DNA from: a virus
Reading direction: 5' to 3' (one strand)
DNA: 64,000 nucleotides
Virus record (IMG/VR): IMGVR_UViG_3300044640_002221
Span: 32,001-96,000 of that record
In this document: positions 23,604 to 35,723 of the stretch, piece after piece
Numbering within the stretch: position 1 is the first letter of the stretch
Layout: the number at the start of each line of letters is the position of its first letter
The notes under the pieces: model-generated
Database searches by the model: none
What the model saw: only the letters and a program-made list of their open reading frames with translations
What the model was told of the DNA's origin: nothing
Program-made: the position numbers and the translations under genes

Positions 23604-23894
23604 CTAGAGGAGCTTGCGATTTGCTCTATTAGAGTCTAGATAATCATCCAAATATTCTTGTAAGCAGACAGAGCCGCAGAAAGTTCCTTGTTCATTTTGA
23701 GAATGAGGTACTAGGACTTCACTTCTAATAGTTAAAGTAACCAGCAGACTGTGGTTTAAGTCCATCTTTAGACTCCCTCCACACCAGTCGCAGCAATCTT
23801 TCTTACCTATAGCTCCTGTCATTGTTTGCCTCCTAGATATGACAAAGGGAGGGTAATACCCTCCCCTCTTATCAATGAAGCCAGATTGGTCCAA
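23604..23894 (-). CDS. Hypothetical protein with CxxC pairs
   Basis: CDWCG...CGSVC. Confidence 0.55.
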   Translation of the reverse strand: MDQSGFIDKRGGYYPPFVISRRQTMTGAIGKKDCCDWCGGSLKMDLNHSLLVTLTIRSEVLVPHSQNEQGTFCGSVCLQEYLDDYLDSNRANRKLL

Positions 23895-24123
23895 TATTGT
23901 ACTCAGCTCGTCCGGTCAAGGGACTGCCAGCAGCTTTAAAGAACTCAGTCTCTACTTCCACCATTATTCTGTGAATCAGCTCTGCTGCTTCTTTAGCCTC
24001 CGCGTCCCAAGCAAACTTAGGTGTAGTTGGTCTACCATCTTTATCAATTACGTTACCGTGTTTATCAAAGAAGGTTTTAGTCTCATCTATCCAAGTCTTA
24101 CCCGGAGCGCGGGCGTTTAGTTC
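23872..24123 (-). CDS. polA: Family A DNA polymerase, last exon
   Basis: ELNARAPG...AELIHRIMVEVE...YNIGPIWLH* completes motif C (VHD|EL) and the IG..W..H terminus; follows the intron terminal G at 24124. Confidence 0.9.
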   Translation of the reverse strand, partial: ELNARAPGKTWIDETKTFFDKHGNVIDKDGRPTTPKFAWDAEAKEAAELIHRIMVEVETEFFKAAGSPLTGRAEYNIGPIWLH

Positions 24124-24274
24124 CACTTGTGTTACGAGTAGCCCGGTTCCGACTACTCTCTCTAGCTTTCACTAGAGGTCAGATCATATCATCCTCAGTT
24201 ATGAGGGAGCCTGTTTCGAGTGTCCGACACCCTACGTCTTGTGACTGACCGTTGAACCTTGTACGTGCTATAAG

Positions 24275-24355
24275 TGGATGCTAAAAGAGTTGAACTTTTC
24301 TTGGGTTTCCCCACGACTTATGAGGTCGTTGCCTAAACCGCTCGGCCAAGCATCC
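24275..24355 (-). tRNA. tRNA(CAU), probably Ile2 (Met not excluded), with a 13-nt variable region; nested in intron 4
   Basis: GGATGCT/AGCATCC+A acceptor; D arm GCCGAGCGGTTTAGGC; ACGAC-CTCATAA-GTCGT anticodon arm; GGGGAAACCC variable hairpin; AAAAG-TTCAACT-CTTTT T arm; no encoded CCA. Confidence 0.88.
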
Positions 24356-24427
24356 ATCTTTATAGTTTAGCACCTTGGCTGCTGATTGTCCATATCCTTG
24401 TTCTTTTTAAACCTGATGACAGCTAGT

Positions 24428-24703
24428 TTAACAAAGGTCTAAGTTACCTTCTGAACTATAATCTACGTCTGTCAGATGGTCTTGACAACATAAGTAAACT
24501 TTTGCGTCTGCTTTTACCAATCCATCTGCTAACAACTTCTGCACCTTATCTAAAAGCTGCTGAACTGTTATTGCTTCTGGGGGTTTAGGAGCATAGTTTT
24601 GAGGTACTAGTAATGCCCCTATGGTCTTTAAACCTGGATGAGGTGCAGCACCACTTTTGGTTATTGTTTTAGGAAGTATGTAAGGTTCTGTCATGTCTTC
24701 CAC
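24428..24703 (-). CDS. Intron-encoded hypothetical protein (no nuclease motif)
   Basis: ORF track; enclosed by the stem ATGATAGTTA/TAGCTGTCAT between the P and Q elements. Confidence 0.6.
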   Translation of the reverse strand: MEDMTEPYILPKTITKSGAAPHPGLKTIGALLVPQNYAPKPPEAITVQQLLDKVQKLLADGLVKADAKVYLCCQDHLTDVDYSSEGNLDLC

Positions 24704-24815
24704 TATTTATTAACTATCATTATAATCACGCTTGCCGTTTCCAGCTACGTTGTGGTGAACAAGGCTCTGAGGAATTTCCAGCAATTTAAGCTCTTTACCC
24801 ACGACCAACTAATCA

Positions 24816-24905
24816 ATCGTGCACCGCGTTTAATATTATAATTCCTGTTCCTTTAGCCTCCTTTCGTACGCGTATCATGGCTTCTTTCATCATCTGGGCG
24901 CATTC
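24816..24905 (-). CDS. polA: Family A DNA polymerase exon (30 codons)
   Basis: ECAQMMKEAMIRVRKEAKGTGIIILNAVHD, matching the IQGxAAD..K.AM to motif C segment. Confidence 0.9.
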
Positions 24906-25000
24906 CGATTATGTTATCACTGAGCTTTTTATCTCAGTTTCTAAAGATTTCTCCTTAGTCCAGGGCACGTCTTGAACAGTAAGTGGGTAGTAGGTTTGGT

Positions 25001-25366
25001 CTAGAAGGGAGAGGCGTAACCTTTCCAGTCTTCTATGGTATTTAAGGTTTGAGTCTCAGTGGTCAGTCCAGCTATTAAAGTAGAGACACCTCCTTGTAAG
25101 TTTGGTAGTTTTATTCCTTTAGAAGGATTAGCTCTTTCAAACTCTGCATAAGCTTTATCAGAGTAAAACTGCCCCGTGCTTTGCTGGAGTTGGTCTCTCA
25201 GCTTAGTGTTCTCTTCCATAGCAACAATCAACTTTTCAGTCAATTGTTGGTTCTGTGTTTGCAGGTCAGCTACTAAAGCTTGATAGCTACTGGTGAGAAC
25301 TATCTTGGTGTCAAGTATCTTCTCTAAGTCAGAAGACTCGACGAACTGTTCGTTGTGGTTGTTCAT
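25001..25366 (-). CDS. Intron-encoded hypothetical coiled-coil protein
   Basis: ORF track 25001..25411; likely start is ATG 25366, just after the upstream stop. Confidence 0.6.
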   Translation of the reverse strand: MNNHNEQFVESSDLEKILDTKIVLTSSYQALVADLQTQNQQLTEKLIVAMEENTKLRDQLQQSTGQFYSDKAYAEFERANPSKGIKLPNLQGGVSTLIAGLTTETQTLNTIEDWKGYASPF

Positions 25367-25370
25367 TTGT

Positions 25371-25979
25371 TTAGATAACGTAAGGTTGAACAATTGCGCG
25401 GTACTCTTCAAGTCTGGCTTCTAAGGTTTGGCACTTAGTTTCAAGTTGATTAATCTGCTCTACATACTTAGGAACTAAGTCTTCAAGCTCTGCCAATCTA
25501 GCTCTCAAGTGTATGAGTTCTGACTTTGAGCTTTCCTTCTTCTCTGTAGCCTTTTCAGACTGTTCATTAAAGTAGTCTTCTGCAGTACCTTCCCATAAAG
25601 GGTTAGCCTCAAGCTTATCAACTGCCCAGCGAAGAATCTTATCACTGATAATTACTTTGAAGCAGCTCTCTTCTTTTAGAAGACCAATCTTTTCCACAAC
25701 GTCCCAATGCTCATAGAGGAAGATACAGCGGTAAGCTTTTCTTCTTTCTACTCTCTCTTCTAAATAATGATTAAAAGAGTTGAAAGTTCCTCTGTCAGTT
25801 TCTACAGGGTTAGACTTAGTAGCTGATGCCAGCATATCTCTAATCTTTGTGAGAGACTCTCCAGCATCTCGGTAATGTTGAAGGCTCTTTCTCCTTAACT
25901 GTTGAGACTCTTTAAAGTTCTCGTCAGCTTCACCAAACTTAGTCATGTAATTTGTTTCTAATAGAGATAGGATAAGCAT
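25371..25979 (-). CDS. Intron-encoded protein, DUF3102-like N-terminus plus coiled coil
   Basis: YRDAGESLTKIRDML...F.HYLEE.V..RKAYRCI.LYEHW resembles the N-terminus of 43906..45258. Confidence 0.55.
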   Translation of the reverse strand: MLILSLLETNYMTKFGEADENFKESQQLRRKSLQHYRDAGESLTKIRDMLASATKSNPVETDRGTFNSFNHYLEERVERRKAYRCIFLYEHWDVVEKIGLLKEESCFKVIISDKILRWAVDKLEANPLWEGTAEDYFNEQSEKATEKKESSKSELIHLRARLAELEDLVPKYVEQINQLETKCQTLEARLEEYRAIVQPYVI

Positions 25980-26320
25980 AGAACTTTTATTCTGCTAAAG
26001 GACATGACCTGTGGTTTAAACCACAGGTTCTCATTACTAATATAGCAGCTTATTCTAGAAGAAACATCTTGAGTCTTATTAAACCTTCCAACTACCTTAA
26101 TACGACCTTTGCTGCCTACTTACTGTCCGGGGGCGCTCTTGGGTCTCTTACCGTCTGTTCCTGCAATGCAAGACTGAAGACTTAGACCTGCCCGTCGCAC
26201 CTTCCTACCATTTCTGATAGGCTTGGCTCAAAGTTATCCTCAACATCACTTGGTAGGACTTTCTTATGAGTTCACCCCCTGCACTCTAAAAGTCACCTAA
26301 TAGAGGGGCAATTGTTATTT

Positions 26321-27204
26321 CAGTGTTATTACCGTCAAGGCTCTTTATCCCTGACTTCTACTGGTCACCCAGCAGCTTGGACTATTTCATTATCTAGACT
26401 TAGTAGTAGAACTCTCTTTCTATTTAAGAAGAAACCAGGTTCTTGGTACATAAGCTTGGTCAGCCGTTCAACGCGTTCCTTACTGCCGACTCTTATCACT
26501 TGCACACTCCTATTGTTGTAGATGCTAACCTTAAAGTCATTCTCTCTAAGAAAACTAACTAATTGGTCAACAAACTCTTTACTAGCAGAGCATAAAGTTA
26601 TAGCTTTGTAATCCCCTTTTGCCCCATCCTTTTTGATGTGACCATTCCCATCCATGACACCTCTAAAGAAGCTAAAACTTAAAGGAAAGTTAACCTTTAA
26701 AGATTTACTCTTTCTAGGGGTTATTCCAAGGCTAGTTAAATAAGAAGCAACTTCTTTATTAGTGAAGCTTACCTCGTAATAAGTAGTTTGGTATCTCTTG
26801 TCGAAGATAGGGTAGGGTTTCATCAATTCCCCTAAAAAGCTGCAGAAAGCTAAGGCTAAGTCTTCATCTTTTGTAACTAGACTAACCTTTCCTCTATCAT
26901 GCACGCAGCCATCTGTTGCCATTATTCCCAGCCAGTATTGAACTTCTGGGGCAAGCATTTCTGTAAATGGATTAGTTGTTACTTTCTTAGGGAGTCTTGG
27001 CATCTTTTTCTCTACTACATTCTCAGTCTAGATATCGGGCGCTCGTGGGCAGATTATTATTGGGATTCACTGCCTAGTCTCTGAACCTTCTAGGAAACCT
27101 ATGCCCTTCCTAGCTTGGCTTAGCGTTATCTTACCTTGTAAGACTTTCACTAAATTCACCCGATTTTCATTTATTGATTACTCAATAAAGGGGCTCTCTA
27201 CGGG
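26321..27204 (-). mobile_element. Group I intron 3a of polA (884 nt) with a LAGLIDADG gene in P8
   Basis: IGS GCCCC; P GAAUUUAGUGAAA; R UUCAGAGACUA; P3' CGCCCGAU; P8 AUCUAGACU/AGUCUAGAU; S GAAAUAGUC; ends AUAACACUG. Confidence 0.88.
26365..27003 (-). CDS. LAGLIDADG homing endonuclease (double motif)
   Basis: YWLGIMATDGCV and FFRGVMDGNGHI. Confidence 0.9.
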   Translation of the reverse strand: MPRLPKKVTTNPFTEMLAPEVQYWLGIMATDGCVHDRGKVSLVTKDEDLALAFCSFLGELMKPYPIFDKRYQTTYYEVSFTNKEVASYLTSLGITPRKSKSLKVNFPLSFSFFRGVMDGNGHIKKDGAKGDYKAITLCSASKEFVDQLVSFLRENDFKVSIYNNRSVQVIRVGSKERVERLTKLMYQEPGFFLNRKRVLLLSLDNEIVQAAG

Positions 27205-27274
27205 ACCCTGGATCGCGTGGTTCACTGCAGCGCGAACCGAGCTTTCTCCTACGCCCTTAGCATTCTCTTCATCT
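27205..27274 (-). CDS. polA: Family A DNA polymerase exon (70 nt)
   Basis: (V)DEENAKGVGESSVRAAVNHAIQG, the R.A.N..IQG motif. Confidence 0.9.
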
Positions 27275-27441
27275 CTATTGTGTTATCGCCAGGGCTCTTT
27301 ATCCTTGGCTTCTGTAGGTTATTTTTCCACTACAGTACAGACTATATCATCAACTTAAAAGCAAGCAATTAGTTAAACGTACGGTGTTTTAGTCACGTAG
27401 ACTATTTTGAGTTATTCTTTCTCTTTTCTTTTTTATTACTC

Positions 27442-27573
27442 CTACTGCTTAAACACTACTTCTCTGACGCTGCTGTCCTCTCTTTGTAAGAAAAGTTTAG
27501 ACCCTGCTATTCTTTCCTTTAAGAAGTAAGCTCCTGTAACTATAGCTTTTGTACTTACTTCTTCTGTGGTCAT
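27442..27573 (-). CDS. Small hypothetical protein (43 aa), intron 2 cargo
   Basis: Hand translation MTTEEVSTKAIVTGAYFLKERIAGSKLFLQREDSSVREVVFKQ. Confidence 0.4.
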   Translation of the reverse strand: MTTEEVSTKAIVTGAYFLKERIAGSKLFLQREDSSVREVVFKQ

Positions 27574-27639
27574 ATCTTGGCTTCTAAAATGTTTGTAATG
27601 GAAACACTCTGTTTGCTAAGTAGCTTGTCCTCTAGTTGG

Positions 27640-28512
27640 TCAATCTTTGGTATGTTCACTTTGTTGTGCTTGCCAGACAGTAATACCAACTTCATCTTCT
27701 ATAGCTACTAACTCAGCCGTTATGTTAAAGCTCGAAAAATCAAAAACGCTGACTAAATCTACAGATTTAATATGTACCGCTTTTAAAGACAAAGCAGAAA
27801 CTACACGATAGAATAACTCTTCTTGATTACTTACAGAGTTCTTGATTAAGTAAGTTAACTTGTAAAGTTGAGGAGTGGGAGCGGTGTTTTTAACGCTACA
27901 AACTACATTACCCTCTTCATCTTCTACTCTTGTTAAAGACCAAATAGAGTCTTCGGTACTGAACTCTCCCGCAATATCAAAGCCTTTTTGTTTAGCTAAG
28001 TTTTCAGACTCAGTGCTGAATATCTTATAAAACTCACTGACAGAAGCTTTGTTGTTTACAGAGAATACCAGTTTGTAATCTTGAGAATGCTCTTCTTCTA
28101 AGCACTCACCAACTTCACAGTCCCAAACTATCAGGTTGTCTGAGTCATAAATACGTTTTAAAGTTACTAACCTCTCAGAACCTTGAAGTGCATCTATTGT
28201 AATCTCTGCTGCTACTAAAGCTTCTTGCAGGTCTTTAACTATAACTTCTCTTTCTAAGTTAAAGCTTCTTGGTACAATTTGCTTATTAACGTAAAACTCT
28301 AGCCTGAAAGTTTTCAGGTAAGAATATCTACAATGAAGTCTATAAAGAACTGCGCCAGCTCTAGTTTGACCATCTTTAAGAGTCTCTCTAGCTGCATCTA
28401 AGTAACCCTGAAGTACCTCTCTTTCAATGCCTGGATAGCTTTGGATTAGAAACTCTAGGGTCGGGAGTTCTTTTAAAGTATCGGCAATCAAACAATTGTA
28501 TAGTTGTTGCAT
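27640..28512 (-). CDS. Hypothetical protein with internal YKL repeats, intron 2 cargo
   Basis: ORF track; repeated YKL...FY(K/R)...(V/L)EDE.G..V units. Confidence 0.65.
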   Translation of the reverse strand: MQQLYNCLIADTLKELPTLEFLIQSYPGIEREVLQGYLDAARETLKDGQTRAGAVLYRLHCRYSYLKTFRLEFYVNKQIVPRSFNLEREVIVKDLQEALVAAEITIDALQGSERLVTLKRIYDSDNLIVWDCEVGECLEEEHSQDYKLVFSVNNKASVSEFYKIFSTESENLAKQKGFDIAGEFSTEDSIWSLTRVEDEEGNVVCSVKNTAPTPQLYKLTYLIKNSVSNQEELFYRVVSALSLKAVHIKSVDLVSVFDFSSFNITAELVAIEDEVGITVWQAQQSEHTKD

Positions 28513-28741
28513 GGTTATTTCTTTTAGTCTTGGTAATAATCTGATTGAAATTGTTCTTCTACGAGGTTATCAAGCTGTTCTGTAGCTATATGAGCAAAGC
28601 ATACATGGAGGCTGCTCATATAGTCGGAAGCTTCATTACCTATTACTAAAGCATTCTCTAAGTTACTAGCCAACACATCTCTATAGATTAAAAAGTCTGG
28701 CAAAACCTCTGTACTGACGGTTTAACGTCAGTTTGTATCTA

Positions 28742-28891
28742 TTACTGCTTTTCTTTCTCCTCAATGTCATCAGCTTCCTCCCTGTAAGAGTTCAGTTGTG
28801 CAACTATTTGTTCTGCTGTTTCTCCTTCTGGGAGGGTTACAGCTCCGCTGAGAACATAGTCTTGCAGCATTGTAATAATATCTTGGCTCAT
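28742..28891 (-). CDS. Small hypothetical protein (49 aa), intron 2 cargo
   Basis: Hand translation MSQDIITMLQDYVLSGAVTLPEGETAEQIV...; paralog of 29500..29706. Confidence 0.6.
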   Translation of the reverse strand: MSQDIITMLQDYVLSGAVTLPEGETAEQIVAQLNSYREEADDIEEKEKQ

Positions 28892-29319
28892 GGTAGCTTA
28901 GTCTTGTTGTTCTGTTTATACCAATCTGGGTTGTACATTTCTACTTTCTGATCAATCTCTAGCTTTAGACAAGCCTCTAAATTTACTTCAACCACATTAA
29001 GAGTGCGGACTGCTACACTAGATAACCGTTGAACCTGTAAGTTTGGTTCATCCTCCTCTGTTAAAGTCTTTAAAACTTCTAGAGCACTCATCGTGGTTGG
29101 TAGAGTAATGATAAACGGATTGAGCCCTAGCCAATGAAGAGCTGCACTTGTTGACCAAGTAGCATCTAGCTCATGAGAACTTTTATAGCCAGTCTCAAAA
29201 GCAGCTTTAGCTTTTTCTGCTGAACGAAAAGTGCATAGAGACTTATCTTCAGTAAGAGACAAAAAAGCTTTTCCTTGAGTTCTAAAGATTATGAAGTAGT
29301 TATTCACTGCGTTTACCAA
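28888..29319 (-). CDS. Hypothetical protein, intron 2 cargo
   Basis: ORF track. Confidence 0.6.
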   Translation of the reverse strand: MVNAVNNYFIIFRTQGKAFLSLTEDKSLCTFRSAEKAKAAFETGYKSSHELDATWSTSAALHWLGLNPFIITLPTTMSALEVLKTLTEEDEPNLQVQRLSSVAVRTLNVVEVNLEACLKLEIDQKVEMYNPDWYKQNNKTKLP

Positions 29320-29500
29320 ACCCTTTGGCTGACCTTAAATCTGCCTTAGTTCTTATTTTAGGCGTAGGCTGACAGGGGGAGGAGTCATCAATAAAGGATT
29401 TAATTTCTGCTCTATCAACTTGACTTATCCCATAGCTGTTAATTAGTCCTCTGTCATCAGACCAGACAGGACTAGCGACAAATATTTCTGCTTCACGCAT
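29300..29500 (-). CDS. Hypothetical protein, intron 2 cargo
   Basis: ORF track; ends AKGFGK like its neighbour (ARGFGK). Confidence 0.55.
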   Translation of the reverse strand: MREAEIFVASPVWSDDRGLINSYGISQVDRAEIKSFIDDSSPCQPTPKIRTKADLRSAKGFGKRSE

Positions 29501-29706
29501 TACTTAACTCCTTTAGGCTTACCAAATCCTCTAGCTGCTGGCAGTGGTGGATTGAGATAACCAAACTCCCCCTGGTCTAAGACAAAGGTTTCAAAGAAAA
29601 CTAAGTCTTTCTGCATCTTCTCGACGTTAGACCCTTCTGGTGGGGTTATAGCCCCACTCTGAATGAGCTTTATCAACTGAATGGAAGTCTTTTCACGTTT
29701 AGTCAT
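29500..29706 (-). CDS. Hypothetical protein, intron 2 cargo
   Basis: ORF track; SGAITPPEG motif. Confidence 0.6.
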   Translation of the reverse strand: MTKREKTSIQLIKLIQSGAITPPEGSNVEKMQKDLVFFETFVLDQGEFGYLNPPLPAARGFGKPKGVK

Positions 29707-30208
29707 CTTGATTTACCTTTGGTAGTCTTCTACCTATTTCATAGTTCTCAAACATCCACTTAACTACGTGGTCTACTAGATAGTGTTTTAACTGCCAGTA
29801 ACTTGACCTGCCCATCTGTTCTTCAGCTACCTGCATACAAGCCTTTAACTTTTCAGACCCTTCAGGTTCATGGTTAGAAGTTTTAGTAAGAGCTTGGCTT
29901 ATCTTATCAAGAATCTCCTCTACATTATCTGCTGGTCTTGTTTGATAAACAGTTACTCCACCAGACAGATTACCTACTGGTGGAGTGGCTAAGTTTTCTA
30001 CTGGTGGAGTGGCTAAGTTTTTAGGAATCCTGTAAACCTGAAAGTAACAGTCGGGCGCGGCAAGTAGCATCCTAGTGAGAGTTACATTCTTGTAGTCTGG
30101 AAAGTCTTTAACTAATTCTTCCATTTGGGTATACAGCTTCAGCAGCTCTCTAGGTAGCATATAGAGAGTCTTAGCATACTGTACATAATCAAAGTCTTGT
30201 TCTGTCAT
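29699..30208 (-). CDS. Hypothetical protein, intron 2 cargo
   Basis: ORF track; 24-nt tandem duplication (NLATPPVE/NLATPPVG). Confidence 0.6.
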   Translation of the reverse strand: MTEQDFDYVQYAKTLYMLPRELLKLYTQMEELVKDFPDYKNVTLTRMLLAAPDCYFQVYRIPKNLATPPVENLATPPVGNLSGGVTVYQTRPADNVEEILDKISQALTKTSNHEPEGSEKLKACMQVAEEQMGRSSYWQLKHYLVDHVVKWMFENYEIGRRLPKVNQDD

Positions 30209-30213
30209 AATGT

Positions 30214-30546
30214 TTAAGAGTTTTGTTCTTTATTCTTGAAAAAGGTCAGCCAATCTATTACTACATCTAATAGAGCGTCTTTTGCTTCTGGAGATAGTCT
30301 TGCTACCATTTCCACCAAATCTCTCTGAGCATCTTCAGCAAACAACTTGGGCTGATAGACTCTTCTAAACTCCTTTCTAATCTCTCTAAGCTTTGGCAGG
30401 TGCGCTTTTAGTAAAGGGTTAACCTCCCAAGCTGCTATTATGCTTTCAATAATGTCTGAAGCTTCTTTTACTACAGGACTAAGACTAGTCTCTATAGCTT
30501 GCTCAATAAGCTGGGTAGCTTCTTCTACATACTCTTGTTCTGTCAT
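30214..30546 (-). CDS. Hypothetical protein, intron 2 cargo
   Basis: ORF track. Confidence 0.6.
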   Translation of the reverse strand: MTEQEYVEEATQLIEQAIETSLSPVVKEASDIIESIIAAWEVNPLLKAHLPKLREIRKEFRRVYQPKLFAEDAQRDLVEMVARLSPEAKDALLDVVIDWLTFFKNKEQNS

Positions 30547-30888
30547 TTAATTCTCCGATGCAGATGGTTTGTACATCCAATTATCTCCTCCATGCGGCGG
30601 AGGAACGTCTATAAACCCTAATCTTTCATACCAAGCTTTAAGGTCAGTCTTTCCTAAGCCTTGATTAAACGGAACAGACTGCAAACAAAAGGTTGCTTTA
30701 GGATGAGCATCAAAGACCTCTTGCAAAAGCTGCGTGCCGTAACCTTGTCTCTGAAACTCAAGGTTGATGAACAAGTTTATTATCTGAACTTGTTTACCCT
30801 CTTTGACTGTGAATGTGCCGCCTATTATCTCACCTGTGTCTGACAGAAGCTCATAATAGGCAGCTTTTAACTTGTTTATTTTTACCAT
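30547..30888 (-). CDS. GNAT-family acetyltransferase, intron 2 cargo
   Basis: LFINLEFQRQGYGTQLL (acetyl-CoA motif A) and LKAWYERLGF (motif B). Confidence 0.85.
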   Translation of the reverse strand: MVKINKLKAAYYELLSDTGEIIGGTFTVKEGKQVQIINLFINLEFQRQGYGTQLLQEVFDAHPKATFCLQSVPFNQGLGKTDLKAWYERLGFIDVPPPHGGDNWMYKPSASEN

Positions 30889-30920
30889 TGCTTGCTTTTA
30901 AGTTGCTGGGCGCTCGTGTG

Positions 30921-31544
30921 CTACAAGTAATTCATGTCTATTTTATAAGACATAGATGGAATGATAAATGGCTCAACAAGGGCTATAAATTTCTTTGCTT
31001 CCTTTGTTCCACAAGTTAATCTGTACCAACCTTTGTTTAGAACCTGACCAAAGTTAATAGCGTACTTTTCTTTAAAGAAATCTATGATAATTTGGTTTTC
31101 TTCTTTGGTTCTATGAGTGTTCAGATATATTCTTCTAGCGTGAATCTTTCCATTTCTTTTAGGTAAAGAAAGATTTCCATCGTCCATATACCAAATAGCT
31201 ATTCCTTCTGGCGTTAGGTAGTTTAAAATCTTTCTTTGATAGGTTTTTATCCCATTTGGGTACATCCACTTTCTTAAATAACGAAACCATCTATGCTGTT
31301 TTGAAATTTGCACACCTGGATACCCATTATTATTTATCTCCTGGATTTTTGGTTGTTTGCCCCCGAGAATTGAGTGTAGTAACTTAGCTTTGTGCTCCAG
31401 GTACTCTCTTTGCTTTGCTGAGTGTCGCAACTTCAAAGTATAGTACGTTTTAGGAACAGTACATCTTTTGTTAACTACAGGCGTTACGTACCCGTCCCCT
31501 AAGACCATTGCTATTAGCAGAGATTTTTTTAACTGTCTTTCCAT
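30921..31544 (-). CDS. LAGLIDADG homing endonuclease (LAGLIDADG_2-like)
   Basis: LIAMVLGDGYV, HSAKQREYL..K, LTPEGIAIWYMDDG. Confidence 0.9.
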   Translation of the reverse strand: MERQLKKSLLIAMVLGDGYVTPVVNKRCTVPKTYYTLKLRHSAKQREYLEHKAKLLHSILGGKQPKIQEINNNGYPGVQISKQHRWFRYLRKWMYPNGIKTYQRKILNYLTPEGIAIWYMDDGNLSLPKRNGKIHARRIYLNTHRTKEENQIIIDFFKEKYAINFGQVLNKGWYRLTCGTKEAKKFIALVEPFIIPSMSYKIDMNYL

Positions 31545-31723
31545 CTTCTTTTACAAACCTTTTGGTTGTACTTTATGTAAATTGTAGCTTAGTCGTTACA
31601 CTTTCCTACCATCCCTGATAGGCTTAGCTAGGTATTACCCTTCCTTGCTGCAAAGGTTTGGGGCTTTCACCTAATTCACCCAGTTGTCATCCACCAATCA
31701 CTTGGTGGCGGGGCTGAGAACCA

Positions 31724-32154
31724 ACCCATCTCCATAATCCTGATACTGGAGAGATAGCATATCCTCTGGCGGCTGCGATCGCTCCGAACTCTTCTGCCCA
31801 AGCGTAATAACCTGGATAGGTAGTTCTGTGTCCTGTTAACCAAGACTGAGCTACTTCTTCTTTTACACAGAAGTTTTCAGCAGCTGTTGAAGCGGACATA
31901 AGATATATGCTACCAAAGTTGAGAGATTTTGCACTCTTCCTTGCTCCGCTTTTGTCTGCTATTGCTCTCCATTCGTGCTCTGGTTTTCCTTCAAATAAAT
32001 GAGGGGCTACACAACCTTTTGATGAGAGAGTATGTAAATCGGAGTAGGGATTTACATACTCTGTACCATCTTCTAAGTAGAGCTTAGTTTTTGCTAGATA
32101 ACTGTTGACCATTGTGGGGTCTTTCGACCATGCTGCGGCTGTGATTAGCTCTTG
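31724..32154 (-). CDS. polA: Family A DNA polymerase exon containing motif B
   Basis: QELITAAAWSKDPTM...DLHT...RKSAKSLNFGSIY...SGLWRW(V); 431 nt, and phase matches both neighbouring exons. Confidence 0.92.
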
Positions 32155-32308
32155 CTTTTGTGATTACCGTGAGGCTCTTTATCCTCACCTCTTATAGTTT
32201 CCTATAAGCTTCGACTATCTCTTCATCTCATGTTGTATTAATACCCTAGACGGGGCTCGAACCCGCAGTTCCTTTCGTAAGCATAAGGGTTAGGAGAAAA
32301 GGTTATAA

Positions 32309-33418
32309 CTACCTGAGCCATTTTCTTATAGCGTTGTCACTTACACCAAACATTTTACCCACAGAAACATAACTTTTTGAAGAAACTAGAGCTAATAGTT
32401 CTTCTTTACTAGGTCTGTCTTTGACTTTTCTAGTATGTAATTGATGACAAGAGGGACAGCGAGCACTCTTTCTACTCAATGTGATTTTGCCGCAGTCTTT
32501 ACACTTGTTATCTTGAACTTCTTTGTTTCTGAGTTTTTCCTGTTTTAGCTTCAGTAAGTCTGCCTTTTCTTGTCTTTTAATGGTCAGTTGTTTCTGCTTT
32601 TCTTCTGTAGCCTTATTACGAAGATGTCTCTCTGCCTGCTTAACTCTTAGTGTGTCTAACTTTACTGTTTCTAGTGTTATTAGCTGCATTGCCAGACTGA
32701 ACTTTCTTTCTAGCTTGCTTGTAGAGTCTGCATATAATACTTGACAAACTTTTAAAGCTCGCAGCCCATTAACATTGACCTCGCAGTAGTTACCTCTATT
32801 AACAGGTCTACACCTATAAGCTGGGTCTATAGACTTTACATATTCTATAAACCCTTCCACCATATTTATAGACCCACATAGACCAACTGCTCTTTTCTTT
32901 TCTCCTACATAAACCCATCCATCTCCATCTATACAGCCCCGCCAAAAGTGACGCTGTAAAGAGGGTTCTATGTAAGGTGGTGATGCTATTAGAGATTTAC
33001 GAGGTACTACCCCAAGCTTTGCCAAGTCTTCTTTCATTCTTTTTGAGAATACTGATAGACAAGCAGAGTTTTTCTTCGTGTATCTAACTTTTGTGTGGGC
33101 TTCTAAATAATCTTTAAACTCTTCCAGTATAAGAAAATCATTTTTATGTACTTCTAAGGAAATATTATTTCCTTTTGTAGATACACACCCATCAGTTATT
33201 AAAAACCCAAGGAAATAGGCTTTACTTTCAGTATCAATGTTTTCAAAGAATGACTCGTTCACAGGTTTAAGCGTGCCTCTTCCGTTTTTGGCTACTAGGG
33301 CAAGATTAATATAACATAAGATGCCTGGCGTTCGTGGAGCTTTCTGCTGTTCCAGCTTATTAACTCTAGTCTGTACACCTTCCTTCCATTCCTGGAAGGC
33401 TTGGCTCGGTGTTGTCAT
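32309..33418 (-). CDS. LAGLIDADG homing endonuclease with a C-terminal Zn ribbon and HTH
   Basis: YFLGFLITDGCV, FWRGCIDGDGWV, CKDCG...CPSC, SYVSVGKMFGVSDNAIRKW; the N-terminus overlaps the intron core. Confidence 0.88.
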   Translation of the reverse strand: MTTPSQAFQEWKEGVQTRVNKLEQQKAPRTPGILCYINLALVAKNGRGTLKPVNESFFENIDTESKAYFLGFLITDGCVSTKGNNISLEVHKNDFLILEEFKDYLEAHTKVRYTKKNSACLSVFSKRMKEDLAKLGVVPRKSLIASPPYIEPSLQRHFWRGCIDGDGWVYVGEKKRAVGLCGSINMVEGFIEYVKSIDPAYRCRPVNRGNYCEVNVNGLRALKVCQVLYADSTSKLERKFSLAMQLITLETVKLDTLRVKQAERHLRNKATEEKQKQLTIKRQEKADLLKLKQEKLRNKEVQDNKCKDCGKITLSRKSARCPSCHQLHTRKVKDRPSKEELLALVSSKSYVSVGKMFGVSDNAIRKWLR

Positions 33419-33514
33419 GCTCTAGTAGAGTTTAGAGTTCACCGAGTTAACCAGGTTTACACTACATGATTACTCGTGTAGGAGGCCAATGGTAGATGCA
33501 ACCCTGTCTTTGCC

Positions 33515-33856
33515 TTAAAGACGGTTATGCTTTTCGGTTCTTTGTACTCTTCTTGGTACTTTATTCTCATCGAGAATGTTATATAAGACAGTAGTGCCAA
33601 AACCAAACTCTTTTAGGATGTCGCCAGCTTTTGAACCAGCTTTATATTTTGATATAACCTGCTCAACAGTGGCAGAAGGCAGCTTGACTTTACTAGCGAT
33701 AGTCCTTCTTTCATAAACTTGGTTTTTATCCAATAGAGTATAAAAATTATGACTGTTAAGCTCGTATCTCAGTTTTATTCTGTGTACAGGCTCGCCATCT
33801 TTATATGCTGCTATTATTTCTGCTACTTGTTGTGGGGTTAAATCTTTATAGCTCAT
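33515..33856 (-). CDS. Intron-encoded tandem-HTH DNA-binding protein
   Basis: Two similar HTH-like units (QVAEIIAAYKDGEPVHRIKLRYEL / QVISKYKAGSKAGDILKEFGFG); no nuclease motif. Confidence 0.65.
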   Translation of the reverse strand: MSYKDLTPQQVAEIIAAYKDGEPVHRIKLRYELNSHNFYTLLDKNQVYERRTIASKVKLPSATVEQVISKYKAGSKAGDILKEFGFGTTVLYNILDENKVPRRVQRTEKHNRL

Positions 33857-33877
33857 TGCACCTACCGGATATTTTCA

Positions 33878-33991
33878 ACCTGCGTAATCACAGCTTATAT
33901 GCACTTCTCCTGGTCTACATTCAAACCCTACTCTGGGATTACCTGGGAAGGTAATTGTTCTTGTTTCAGGTTGCCATAGAGTAATTCCCAA
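33878..33991 (-). CDS. polA: Family A DNA polymerase exon containing motif A
   Basis: ...TITFPGNPRVGFECRPGEVHISCDYAG; same frame as 34154..35554 but separated from it by 4 stops; the 5' limit (TTG 33991, preceded by AAAGGA) is uncertain. Confidence 0.75.
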
Positions 33992-34188
33992 ATTTCTTTT
34001 CCTTTCTTAGTTAGTTGCAGATACTGCCTCTTGATGAGCAGCTGCTTACTTTTTAAAACATTCAAAGCAAGCATCACCTCCTTGGTGGTTAGTGGAACAT
34101 CTGGAAATAGAATACCCTTTTGAGGGTCTTTAAAGCACTGGAGAACTAGCAACTCATGCTGGCTCAACTTTAAGCCCAACGGGAGCAA
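33928..34188 (-). CDS. Winged-helix-like reading frame bridging two polA segments
   Basis: LSQHELLVLQ...LNVLKSKQLLI..YLQLTKKGKEIWELL; +1 frame relative to polA. Confidence 0.45.
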   Translation of the reverse strand: MLPLGLKLSQHELLVLQCFKDPQKGILFPDVPLTTKEVMLALNVLKSKQLLIKRQYLQLTKKGKEIWELLYGNLKQEQLPSQVIPE

Positions 34189-35554
34189 ACCAGGCTTTAG
34201 ATAGTGTAAGATTGCAATGCGTTTTATTCCCTATTTGTTGGCTGTTAGGTGCTGAAGAACTGGCTCTACTTGTAGCGGCTCCAAGTTGATCATAGCGAGG
34301 ATGAACGTTACCAGTCACAGGATTAATAAACTTTCTCAAGTCCATACCTTCCTGCTTCAATAACTTCTTAAACTCAAGAATAGCTTTCACTACAGGGCTG
34401 AGAGCTATCAAGTCTGACTGTTCCATGATAGTTAGTTCCTCAAAGAGAGATTCCTCATCATCACTAATAAAGATATCATCTCCACCAGCCTCACCATCGC
34501 CCCCGCTGTCTGTCTTTTTAGAAGCATGAAGTAAGTCTACAATGTCTAGCATTCTTTTGAGAGTTTTACCTTGTACATCAGTTAGCTTATTCATGTTGAT
34601 AGCTTTCTGAAGTACATCTAGTAAGCCTGTTGAGGAGCGAAGAACCTTGAGGGCTTTCTGCGAAGGAACTTCTTTACCAGACCAATCACGTTGGGGAGTG
34701 TCAAGCTCTAGTTCTCTCGAAAGATAAACTCCAGCTTCGTCTAGTGCTTCACAAACCCCTTCTTGATAAAGTCGCATGGTTTCTTCACTGACTGGCATAC
34801 CGCCATATTCCATCTCAGCTACTATGACAGTGAAGTTTAATTCTCGTTTAAGAACTTTCTCCATTCCAAAGCCATAAACACCTGAGCTGTTACCTGTCTG
34901 TAAGATAGGGCTATCTGGTAGTGCGGCTATAATAACTTGCTCCATGATGTCATGTATCTGAAATAGATATTTAACATCTGTAGCTGCGTATAGCACCTTC
35001 TCATACCACCATTCATTATCTAGAGTTCTGGCTGATATTGCAGTTCCCCAGGTAGAAGCACGCAGGTCTTTCTTACCGGTGATGTGAACACTCAAATACT
35101 CTCGGCACAAGTCAGCGTAACTATGTCCATGACCTTTACCTACCTTTGAGCCTGTGGCATTGGATATTAACTTACCCATTACCATGATGTCTCGCACGCG
35201 CTCTGGCATATAGTCCAAGGTTGATTTCATGAACTGCATATCAAACTTGTAGTTAATACCTAGCTGATAGTCTTGTACACTTTCTAAAGTGTCTATCAGT
35301 TCTTGAGGGTTGTAACCAGCAACTTCTAGGTGAAGTAAATCAAAGACGTAGGGGATACCTTTAGGCTTCTGGGCTATTAGCAGAGAGATTCTACCTGTGT
35401 GAGGGTCAAGAGCAGAGCCACCTTTGGTTAACCACTCTGGTCTTACACAGGTTTCTGTATCTACTGCCAGCCGCTTTGCTCCATAAAGGTCTCTACAAGC
35501 TAGAGGATAGTCTTGCAGGTTGGTTATGTAGGCAAAAGGTTTAGTTTGTTTCAC
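34154..35554 (-). CDS. polA: Family A DNA polymerase, N-terminal 3'-5' exonuclease and thumb region
   Basis: ExoI AVDTE, ExoII NYKFD, ExoIII YAATD, and HPRYDQLGAATSRASSSAPNSQQI (TGRLSS.PNLQNI equivalent). Confidence 0.92.
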   Translation of the reverse strand: MKQTKPFAYITNLQDYPLACRDLYGAKRLAVDTETCVRPEWLTKGGSALDPHTGRISLLIAQKPKGIPYVFDLLHLEVAGYNPQELIDTLESVQDYQLGINYKFDMQFMKSTLDYMPERVRDIMVMGKLISNATGSKVGKGHGHSYADLCREYLSVHITGKKDLRASTWGTAISARTLDNEWWYEKVLYAATDVKYLFQIHDIMEQVIIAALPDSPILQTGNSSGVYGFGMEKVLKRELNFTVIVAEMEYGGMPVSEETMRLYQEGVCEALDEAGVYLSRELELDTPQRDWSGKEVPSQKALKVLRSSTGLLDVLQKAINMNKLTDVQGKTLKRMLDIVDLLHASKKTDSGGDGEAGGDDIFISDDEESLFEELTIMEQSDLIALSPVVKAILEFKKLLKQEGMDLRKFINPVTGNVHPRYDQLGAATSRASSSAPNSQQIGNKTHCNLTLSKAWFAPVGLKVEPA

Positions 35555-35723
35555 TAGCCGCTAGTTCCTCATAGTCAGCTAACTCTCTAGCAGCTTTTTC
35601 TTTTATAGCTTTAGCTTGGACTAAAGTAGCTTGCGCCCTCTCAAATTCTTTCTTAGCTTGAGTTAAGTTTCTAGTTATGCGAGTTAGATAGGCTTGCTCT
35701 TGGTCTTTCTTGTCTAAGCTCAT
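35541..35723 (-). CDS. Hypothetical coiled-coil protein
   Basis: ORF track. Confidence 0.55.
   Translation of the reverse strand: MSLDKKDQEQAYLTRITRNLTQAKKEFERAQATLVQAKAIKEKAARELADYEELAASETN

Follow-up and report, generated by a model that had tools for sequence, protein, structure and literature searches.

A tRNA(CAU) gene in the P6a loop of a group I intron that splits the DNA polymerase gene of an uncultured cyanobacterial virus

The stretch of DNA analysed here (the window, 64,000 nt) comprises bases 32001-96000 of one 136,923-bp virus record (IMGVR_UViG_3300044640_002221, referred to as G000), which is ~71% complete according to CheckV and derives from an uncultured cyanobacterial virus. 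On the minus strand of the window, on which all features described in the following are located (tRNA, intron, exons and an open reading frame, ORF), lies a gene for a family A DNA polymerase (polA), whose product is a distant relative of the polymerases of Microcystis phage Ma-LMM01 and Pseudanabaena phages (23-28% identity). The codons for motif C of this polymerase are split (VHD|E) by a group I intron of 692 nt (24124..24815), and an 81-nt tRNA gene with the anticodon CAU (24275..24355) lies within this intron in the same orientation as polA. A preliminary description of the region had proposed that a complete tRNA gene is nested in a group I intron, and this proposal holds for polA: the tRNA is called by ARAGORN and by the Rfam model RF00005, and the intron is a real one as judged by its helices, by covariation and by an intron-less allele. 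A second IMG/VR contig, IMGVR_UViG_3300046777_002658 (referred to as G001; 196,877 bp, 94% complete), has this intron as well, inserted at the identical VHD|E position and with the same tRNA inside.

Upstream of the intron, exon 4 (24816..24905) contributes 30 codons (ECAQMMKEAM...ILNAVHD) and ends in the first half of motif C, and exon 5 (23872..24123; ELNARAPG...GPIWLH, followed by the stop codon) supplies the second half of motif C together with the C-terminus. The proteins encoded by exons 4 and 5 are 80% and 72% identical to the G001 orthologue, respectively. Joining of the exons gives ..ILNAVHD-ELNARAPG.., which restores the VHDE of the family A polymerase motif C and continues to the C-terminal GPIWLH. 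The intron ends that the preliminary description had placed at 24815 and 24124 are correct, as the last base of the 5' exon is a U, the final base of the intron is a G, a P10 pairing is present, and a metagenomic protein of 109 amino acids, P0002, reads through the site. This protein contains ..ILNTVHDELNAHAPG.. unbroken. Exon 4 is identical to its residues 1-26 at 21 of 26 positions, with the alignment stopping at the last exon residue, and exon 5 is 75% identical to its residues 27-109, starting at the first exon residue, so that the boundary 26|27 falls exactly at the predicted junction and leaves no gap. Judged by this alignment, P0002 is a natural intron-less allele that confirms the junction to the nucleotide, and the intron is, by the same comparison, an optional element.

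The internal guide of the intron (24800..24811) consists of the P10 strand UAGUU (24811-24807), which pairs with AACUA of exon 5 (24122-24118), and of the P1 strand GUCGUG (24805-24800), which forms P1 with the exon strand CACGAU| (24821-24816) and brings a U.G pair to the 5' splice site. That the sequences flanking the tRNA fold as a group I core, as the preliminary description had expected, is borne out by the placement of all helices, by the P3/P7 pseudoknot core and by covariation with G001. The 5' strands of P3 (24793-24788), P4 (24783-24778), P5 (24773-24771) and P5a (24764-24757) were located in 24757..24793 and are followed by the P5b hairpin GCUG-GAAA-CGGC with its GNRA loop (24734..24745), in which 4/4 pairs are formed in both G000 and G001. 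The 3' strands of P5a (24403-24396), P5 (24391-24389) and P4/Q (24385-24380) and the 5' strand of P6 (24379-24377) lie in 24377..24403. Downstream of P6a, the segment 24182..24258 contains the 3' strand of P6 (24258-24256), the 5' strand of P7 (GGUCA, 24250-24246), P7.1 (24245-24236), P7.2 (24232-24218), the 3' strand of P3 (AGGCUC, 24212-24207), P8 (24206-24193), J8/7 and the 3' strand of P7 (UGAUC, 24186-24182). P9 (24177-24160), P9.1 (24156-24138), the 3' tail and the terminal G (24124) complete the intron (24124..24177; from an RNAfold prediction of the tail). The pairings are GAGCUU/AGGCUC in P3, UGCUGG/UCAGCA in P4, UCC/GGA in P5, 8 bp in P5a, GCC/GGU in P6 and GGUCA/UGAUC in P7. Between P7 and the 3' strand of P3 (P3'), the hairpins P7.1 (GUC-ACAA-GAC) and P7.2 (GGGUGU-CGG-ACACUC) are arranged in parallel to those of a related intron, L057. 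With P7.1 and P7.2 at this position, an extended P6a and a P9.1, the intron appears to be IA2-like, an assignment made from these features, and we predict that it is removed by guanosine-initiated self-splicing.

An overlay of tRNA and intron models, which had been suggested in the preliminary description, gave the expected tRNA call by ARAGORN and Rfam, whereas the Rfam group I model RF00028 remained below its gathering score on the intron (14.3 bits, E 0.59, versus 50; relaxed search, global alignment, model positions 1-253), and the 384-nt intron copy of G001 had no RF00028 match at E <= 1. The low score results from two large inserts of ~300 nt and 112 nt, which are penalised. The intron therefore rests, in place of an Rfam call, on the hand-built helices, on covariation, on the intron-less allele, and on core motifs that it has in common with Rfam-certified introns. 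The 17-nt J8/7-P7 string was found in only eight IMG/VR contigs, several of which contain classic compact phage introns with the same order J6/7, P7, P7.1, 'GUA', P7.2, P3', P8 and with a short hairpin in place of the tRNA; two of these compact relatives exceed the Rfam threshold (L052 with 63.1 bits and L057 with 51 bits).

G000 and G001 are ~70% identical over the 46 kb that can be aligned, and the G001 intron of 384 nt has retained the tRNA and lacks a 312-nt ORF-bearing insert. The intron helices were compared on the located strands. Among the 65 intron base pairs, 7 show double compensatory changes (in P5, P5a and P5b), 3 show one-sided changes that keep the pair, and 2 are broken in one genome. 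P5 is UCC/GGA in G000 and ACU/AGU in G001, P5a has four double changes, and P5b reads GUUG-GAAA-CAAC in G001, with one double change (C-G to U-A) and one one-sided change (U.G to U-A); the other one-sided changes from G000 to G001 are U.G to C-G in P3 and G.U to A-U in P7. The change in P7 settles the register GGUCA/UGAUC, which is that of the relatives. On the nucleotide level, the identity between the two genomes is 83% in exon 4, 75.5% in exon 5, 83% from P1 to L5 and 84.5% from the 3' strand of P5a to P6, it is 80/81 in the tRNA, where the single difference preserves a GNRA loop, and 96% from the tRNA to the terminal G, with at least the last 52 nt of the intron being identical. The whole part from Q to the terminal G (window 24124-24385 versus G001:C1:143906-144173) is 96-99% identical, as compared to 75-84% in the 5' half and both exons (Fisher p ~1e-5), and the high identity drops exactly at the 3' splice site. 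This conserved 3' module could reflect a recent exchange of the module between phages or an extra constraint on it. The tRNA has changed less than the rest of the intron (1/81 versus 30/299, Fisher p = 0.006).

The tRNA is the only one called by ARAGORN in the window (24274-24355, minus strand, anticodon CAT, labelled Met), and RF00005 recognises it at 24275-24355 with 50.8 bits versus a gathering score of 29. All invariant positions are present: the gene has a 7-bp acceptor stem with G1-C72, followed by A73, and U8, A14, G18G19, a 3-bp D stem, the anticodon loop CUCAUAA with U33 and A37, the pair G53-C61 and the T loop UUCAACU, and CCA is not encoded. Its variable region of 13 nt forms a GGG-GAAA-CCC hairpin; such a long variable arm is unusual for a tRNA other than tRNA-Leu, -Ser or -Tyr. 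The cloverleaf is the minimum-free-energy structure when the tRNA is folded alone with its flanks, and it also emerges from the unconstrained fold of the whole G001 intron. In an alignment of 10 homologues, 100% of the cloverleaf cells are paired, and 18 of the 23 pairs show double changes, a level that is reached in 0/500 shuffles. Relative to the cyanobacterial copies, all 7 acceptor pairs, most of the T stem and 2 anticodon-stem pairs are changed in the phage tRNA with every pair being kept, and stems rewritten in this way argue against a decaying pseudogene.

With respect to its position, the tRNA had been assigned to the P6 loop. It is indeed enclosed by the stem GUGCUA/UAGCAC, and the exact slot is the loop of P6a (L6a). 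The layout that had been quoted for this part is present: Q (GACAAUCAGCAGCCAAG, at ~24390-24374) is followed by the P6a 5' strand GUGCUA (24373-24368), a 12-nt leader (24356..24367; AACUAUAAAGAU, with U at -1 and one change in G001), the 81-nt cloverleaf at 24275-24355, and a segment (24265..24274) that comprises the 4-nt trailer CUUA and the P6a 3' strand UAGCAC (24270-24265), after which the R/P7 segment AAGGUUCAACGGUCA follows directly. The P6a 5' strand is identical in G001, and the predicted RNase P site is 24356/24355. A sigma-70-like site (TGGACA-17-TAAACT, with a TG before the -10 element; window 24364-24392, minus strand) ends 8 nt upstream of position +1 of the tRNA.

A CAU anticodon can belong to an initiator tRNA, an elongator methionine tRNA or a minor isoleucine tRNA (tRNA-Ile2), in which TilS converts C34 to lysidine, so that AUA is read, and automatic labels cannot separate Ile2 from Met. 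The pattern of D arm and anticodon found in the phage tRNA gave at least 120 matches in bacterial genomes, and almost all of the records listed are cyanobacteria. Three complete cyanobacterial genomes each contain three main classes of CAU tRNAs (with occasional extra copies), one being the initiator, one having an ordinary D arm and one the phage-type D arm. To tell the two elongator classes apart, we made use of the Rfam family RF04354 ('Plastid-ycf2 5' UTR'), whose consensus, read in reverse complement, is a CAU tRNA. In plastids, the gene order is rpl23, trnI-CAU, ycf2, and from this order we take RF04354 to be plastid trnI-CAU in antisense. The class with the phage-type D arm scores 37.9-40.6 bits on this model, the elongator class with the ordinary D arm 21.7-27.7 bits, and the initiator does not match; the class with the phage-type D arm is therefore most likely tRNA-Ile2. 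As the phage tRNA matches this class in D arm, anticodon arm and T loop, the tRNA in the intron most likely belongs to the cyanobacterial/plastid tRNA-Ile(CAU) class and would read AUA. RF04354 matches the antisense strand of cyanobacterial and phage tRNA(CAU) genes (window 24275-24355, plus strand; L196, L197, L097) with 22-41 bits, and its matches outside plastids are probably antisense tRNA-Ile2 genes.

The long variable arm is also present in two cyanobacterial metagenome-assembled genomes (GGG-GCAA-CCC and CUC-GAAA-GAG), at L097:4602-4682 (Crinalium sp.) and L157:1122-1202 (uncultured cyanobacterium MFD02581), and in each of these genomes it belongs to the only copy of the class that was found. 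All four long arms are tipped by a GNRA loop. The Crinalium arm is nearly identical to the phage arm and may point to the donor or host lineage. An identity as tRNA-Leu, -Ser or -Tyr, for which the long variable arm and A73 would speak, is ruled out, as the entire 5' half corresponds to that of cyanobacterial tRNA(CAU) and the arm recurs in two copies from cyanobacteria. An initiator tRNA is ruled out as well, since G1-C72 is paired and the anticodon stem is not GGG/CCC, lacking the three G-C pairs at its foot. Outside of introns, the pattern of D arm and anticodon occurs in 46 other IMG/VR contigs (L003-L049) as a free-standing 73-nt tRNA(CAU); these tRNAs are very uniform, have the same D and anticodon arms and an acceptor stem with G1.U72, are common in freshwater viral contigs, and usually lie beside one other tRNA.

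The codon usage of the two phages fits an AUA-reading tRNA. ATA makes up 40% of the Ile codons in G000 and 37% in G001, in comparison to 9.6% in cyanobacterial loci (444 long ORFs). Per 1000 codons, AUA is found 21-22 times in the phages and 6 times in the cyanobacterial loci, and AUG 15-16 versus 19 times, so that AUA is more frequent than AUG in the phages. AGA is likewise abundant, with 56-60% of the Arg codons in both phages versus 10.8% in the cyanobacterial loci, and only two tRNA types are common to both phages, Arg(UCU) for AGA codons and the CAU tRNA in the intron. We consider a function in AUA decoding likely. CCA is not encoded in any phage tRNA, and domains of TilS and of CCA-adding enzymes were detected neither in the G000 record (~71% complete) nor in the G001 record. 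Maturation and modification of the tRNA would therefore depend on the host.

We propose that a cyanobacterial tRNA-Ile2 gene has been captured as L6a cargo of an IA2-type intron in motif C of polA, that it is co-transcribed with polA and processed by the host, and that it serves as AUA decoder; taken as a whole, and with some reservations, we regard this reading as probable. The tRNA would be made within the polA precursor RNA, because it has the same orientation as polA and a promoter of its own is not convincing. Host RNase P would cut after U-1 (24356|24355), host RNase Z or exonucleases would generate the 3' end after A73 (24275), and the CCA-adding enzyme would complete it. Lysidinylation by TilS and charging by IleRS would then turn it into a decoder of AUA, a codon used ~4x more often by the phage than in the sampled cyanobacterial loci. 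Release by RNase P and 3' processing had already been proposed in the preliminary description, and it is the natural route in view of the missing CCA, the U-1, and the lack of phage-encoded TilS and CCA enzyme; the release step itself is one that we infer. The intron would splice by the guanosine-initiated route and restore VHD-E, and L6a would be cut either after splicing, or before it, leaving two halves that are still able to splice. A cut in L6a should be tolerable because L6a is a peripheral loop, and the two pieces would remain joined through P3 (6 bp) and P6/P6a (9 bp). The T4 td intron is reported to tolerate deletion in P6-L6a as well as physical splitting there, with trans-splicing of the split form (pmid 2308166, as cited by PMC1851640 and PMC2729099), and group I introns that are circularly permuted into P6a still fold (PMC2729099). 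The preliminary description had further suggested that cutting before splicing would destroy the ribozyme, so that the two reactions may compete and regulate polymerase expression; nothing in the present analysis supports such a regulation, and the published work on td points against it.

Several observations weigh against this reading. Compared with the adjoining 3' half of the intron, the tRNA shows no significantly higher conservation (1/81 versus 6/151, p = 0.43), so that its near-identity in G000 and G001 is by itself no proof of selection on the tRNA; the identity could stem from a recent exchange of the whole 3' intron module. Only two genomes in the collections searched carry the tRNA-bearing intron: scans with the exon 5 peptide found no relatives in IMG/VR or in metagenomes, a metagenome scan with 20-mers covering anticodon and variable arm gave no matches, an exon 1 profile retrieved only G001 from IMG/VR, and the phage GenBank collection contained no DNA relative of the region, with three further exon 5 protein clusters being found (P0001-P0003), of which P0001 and P0003 probably stem from intron-bearing relatives. 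In the minimum-free-energy fold, part of the leader is paired with the trailer, and this could make cleavage by RNase P slower; the T stem is weak (AAAAG/CUUUU). The assignment to Ile2 was made by class homology and not from determinants known to be recognised by TilS or IleRS. In its acceptor and T stems the tRNA differs completely from the host type, and its own RF04354 score of only 23.4 bits falls among those of the other elongator class. That the tRNA is expressed, processed, modified and charged is in each case deduced from the DNA sequence.

Some of these points lend weight to a functional elongator methionine tRNA, with an unmodified C34, charging by MetRS and reading of AUG. The anticodon CAU and A73 are generally known as the main MetRS determinants, ARAGORN assigns the label Met, a related phage tRNA is annotated as tRNA-Met in a GenBank record, the acceptor stem does not resemble that of the cyanobacterial Ile2 type, and the RF04354 score of the phage tRNA does not surpass the scores of the other elongator class. 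We nevertheless consider a methionine tRNA unlikely, since the D, anticodon and variable arms match the class that fits the plastid trnI-CAU model best and not the other elongator class, the codon over-used by the phage is AUA and not AUG, and the automatic labels do not discriminate between the two. That the tRNA is a neutral or decaying passenger, which entered L6a by illegitimate recombination and persists only along with the intron, would agree with its occurrence in two genomes, with a degree of conservation no greater than in the neighbouring 3' intron half, and with the optional nature of the intron. Such a passenger is hard to reconcile with 23/23 intact helix pairs despite rewritten acceptor, T and anticodon stems, a state that calls for long-term selection on the fold, with the presence of all invariant tRNA positions, with the fit to the codon bias, and with the retention of the tRNA across the gain or loss of the nearby ORF insert, and we regard it as very unlikely.

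The sigma-70-like site (24392..24364) raises the question of whether the tRNA is driven by its own promoter in the intron, independently of polA splicing. Its -10 element is identical in G001 and 4/6 positions of the -35 element are shared, but 3 promoter-like sites in comparison to 1.7 +/- 1.1 in shuffles are not above chance, and the bases involved belong to the Q/P6/P6a core and would be conserved for the ribozyme anyway, which makes an independent promoter highly improbable. Lastly, the cloverleaf could be an RNA-processing handle, with cutting in L6a gating the polymerase by competition with splicing or marking the excised intron for breakdown. In favour of such a handle, transcription reaches the tRNA earlier than P7, P3', P8 and P9, so that it could fold and be cut before a catalytic core exists. 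For the corallimorpharian ND5-717 intron, a conflict of this kind, in which internal genes have to be processed and the intron spliced in cis, has been raised as well (PMC6545197), and the intron studied here is unusually conserved in its 3' half, which begins with the tRNA and runs to the terminal G (96-99%, versus 83-84% in the 5' half; p ~1e-5). A handle, however, would require neither an intact anticodon arm, a canonical U33, A37 and T loop, nor a host-type Ile2 body, and the reported tolerance of the td intron to splitting at P6-L6a (pmid 2308166, via PMC1851640 and PMC2729099) speaks against the competition; we find a mere handle quite unlikely.

Loops of group I introns are known homes of homing-endonuclease genes, and neither loop cargo in group I introns nor tRNAs in organelle introns are without precedent. 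For a tRNA gene as loop cargo of a group I intron in a phage, a full-text literature search returned no earlier description. The closest structural parallel is the T4 td intron, in which the I-TevI gene lies in the P6/P6a loop (PMC3073962). Both are IA2-type introns in a phage protein gene, have P7.1 and P7.2 between P7 and P3', and carry their cargo in L6a, a loop that in td is reported to tolerate large inserts, deletion and physical splitting (pmid 2308166). The cargo described here differs from that of td in being a tRNA instead of a homing endonuclease, and its release requires cutting of RNA in the intron instead of translation. The polymerase gene of cyanophage Pf-WMP3 also contains an IA2 intron (PMC3428280), and the cases are alike in the type of virus, the family A DNA polymerase gene and the intron class, with self-splicing shown for Pf-WMP3 and predicted here. 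Unlike the polA of G000, which has at least four or five introns, the Pf-WMP3 gene has a single intron, with an HNH nicking endonuclease and no RNA gene.

In organelles, the P8 insert of the corallimorpharian ND5-717 intron holds 2 rRNA genes, 1 tRNA gene and 12 oxidative phosphorylation genes (PMC6545197), and in Ophiostoma minus a tRNA-Ile is annotated after the LAGLIDADG ORF of atp6-i1 and a tRNA-Arg in cox1-1281 (PMC7902536). In these cases, a tRNA gene is likewise formally inside a group I intron and has to be cut from the intron RNA. The organelle introns are mitochondrial, and their tRNAs are part of large multi-gene or ORF-bearing inserts, in ND5-717 in P8; ND5-717 is moreover removed by back-splicing of a permuted precursor. 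The phage intron, in contrast, is compact (384-692 nt), with the tRNA alone in L6a and closed by a 6-bp stem. Cyanobacteria also have group I introns within tRNA genes, namely in tRNA-Leu UAA and tRNA-fMet (PMC3984707). Group I ribozyme and tRNA are combined there as well, in the same cyanobacterial world, but these introns interrupt the anticodon loop and have the tRNA halves as exons, whereas here the tRNA is inside the intron and the exons are protein-coding. The cyanobacterial/plastid tRNA-Ile(CAU) genes resemble the phage gene in D arm, anticodon stem-loop and T loop, and the two metagenome-assembled copies also in the long GNRA-tipped arm. They differ in the acceptor and T stems, which are richer in A/U in the phage, and they are free-standing behind their own promoter, whereas the phage gene lies inside an intron.

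Routine annotation overlooks the intron, labels the tRNA as Met and breaks the polymerase into fragments. One transcript probably gives both the polymerase message and the tRNA. If the tRNA works, the intron is useful to the phage by providing decoding for an over-used codon and becomes harder to lose, which distinguishes it from an intron with endonuclease cargo, and the tRNA gains transcription and perhaps mobility. A broader, tentative and rather unlikely generalisation is that phage group I introns are carriers or expression platforms for small RNA genes, in which tRNA excision and splicing are mechanistically linked. If so, cutting in L6a would produce a two-piece ribozyme or lead to its destruction, the supply of AUA-reading tRNA and of spliced polymerase mRNA would be set by one kinetic competition, and the unit that moves between phages would be the unusually conserved module that starts with the tRNA and extends up to the 3' splice site. 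The locus represents a natural experiment, a ribozyme with an endonucleolytic cut programmed into its own body, for which the intron-less allele and the ORF-less sister copy are natural controls.

A second insert of the G000 intron, 312 nt in length, is located in L5 between the two P5a strands and is absent from G001. It contains the ORF that the preliminary description had noted in the P5 region with a length of 91 amino acids. This ORF is indeed present between the P5a strands; the frame 24428-24703 gives 91 amino acids when read from a GTG, and the ATG at 24694 is the more likely start, with 88 amino acids (24428..24694). A Pfam search with the 88-residue protein gave nothing significant and one weak, sub-threshold match to the Mnd1 helix-turn-helix (E 0.019), no PHROG match was obtained, and the protein atlas gave nothing. 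A single homologue was found (P0005, 84% identical), which probably comes from an intron-bearing relative, and the AlphaFold2 model has a pLDDT of 46.6. No homing endonuclease is recognisable in the loops of the intron, since this ORF has no endonuclease match in Pfam or PHROG and the G001 copy has no ORF. With regard to mobility, the intron-less allele P0002 tells no more than that the intron is optional.

The polA gene spans ~11.7 kb of the window (23872-35560, minus strand), with pieces at ~35560-34170, 32163-31690, 27279-27205 (..AVNHAIQG), 24905-24816 and 24123-23872, and its G001 orthologue consists of at least 7 exon pieces. The only polA intron seen by Rfam is that at 26358-27214 (63.7 bits), which contains a LAGLIDADG ORF; sub-threshold intron pieces within the gene were found at 33276-33509, 32191-32389 and 31587-31677. 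Two polA introns (window 27283-31690 and 24906-26357, minus strand) seemingly enclose runs of ordinary-looking phage ORFs between the 5' and 3' halves of their cores, with eight ORFs at 27640-30897 and two ORFs at 25001-25994. In another polA intron, tRNA-like halves (window 33301-33260 and 32270-32240, minus strand) flank a LAGLIDADG ORF of ~1 kb. The 5' half consists of GCCCUAG, UA and a GCC..GGC D arm, and the 3' half of a T arm GCGGG-UUCGAGC-CCCGU, followed by CUAGGGU and A; ARAGORN made no call for this split module. With this second tRNA-like module, polA carries two tRNA-related modules. The 3' tails of three polA introns (27283-27320, 26310-26357 and 24906-24940, minus strand) are nearly alike and read GAUAAAGAGCC..G.GAUAACA.AAU.G, a similarity that suggests a common origin of, or recombination among, the introns of polA.

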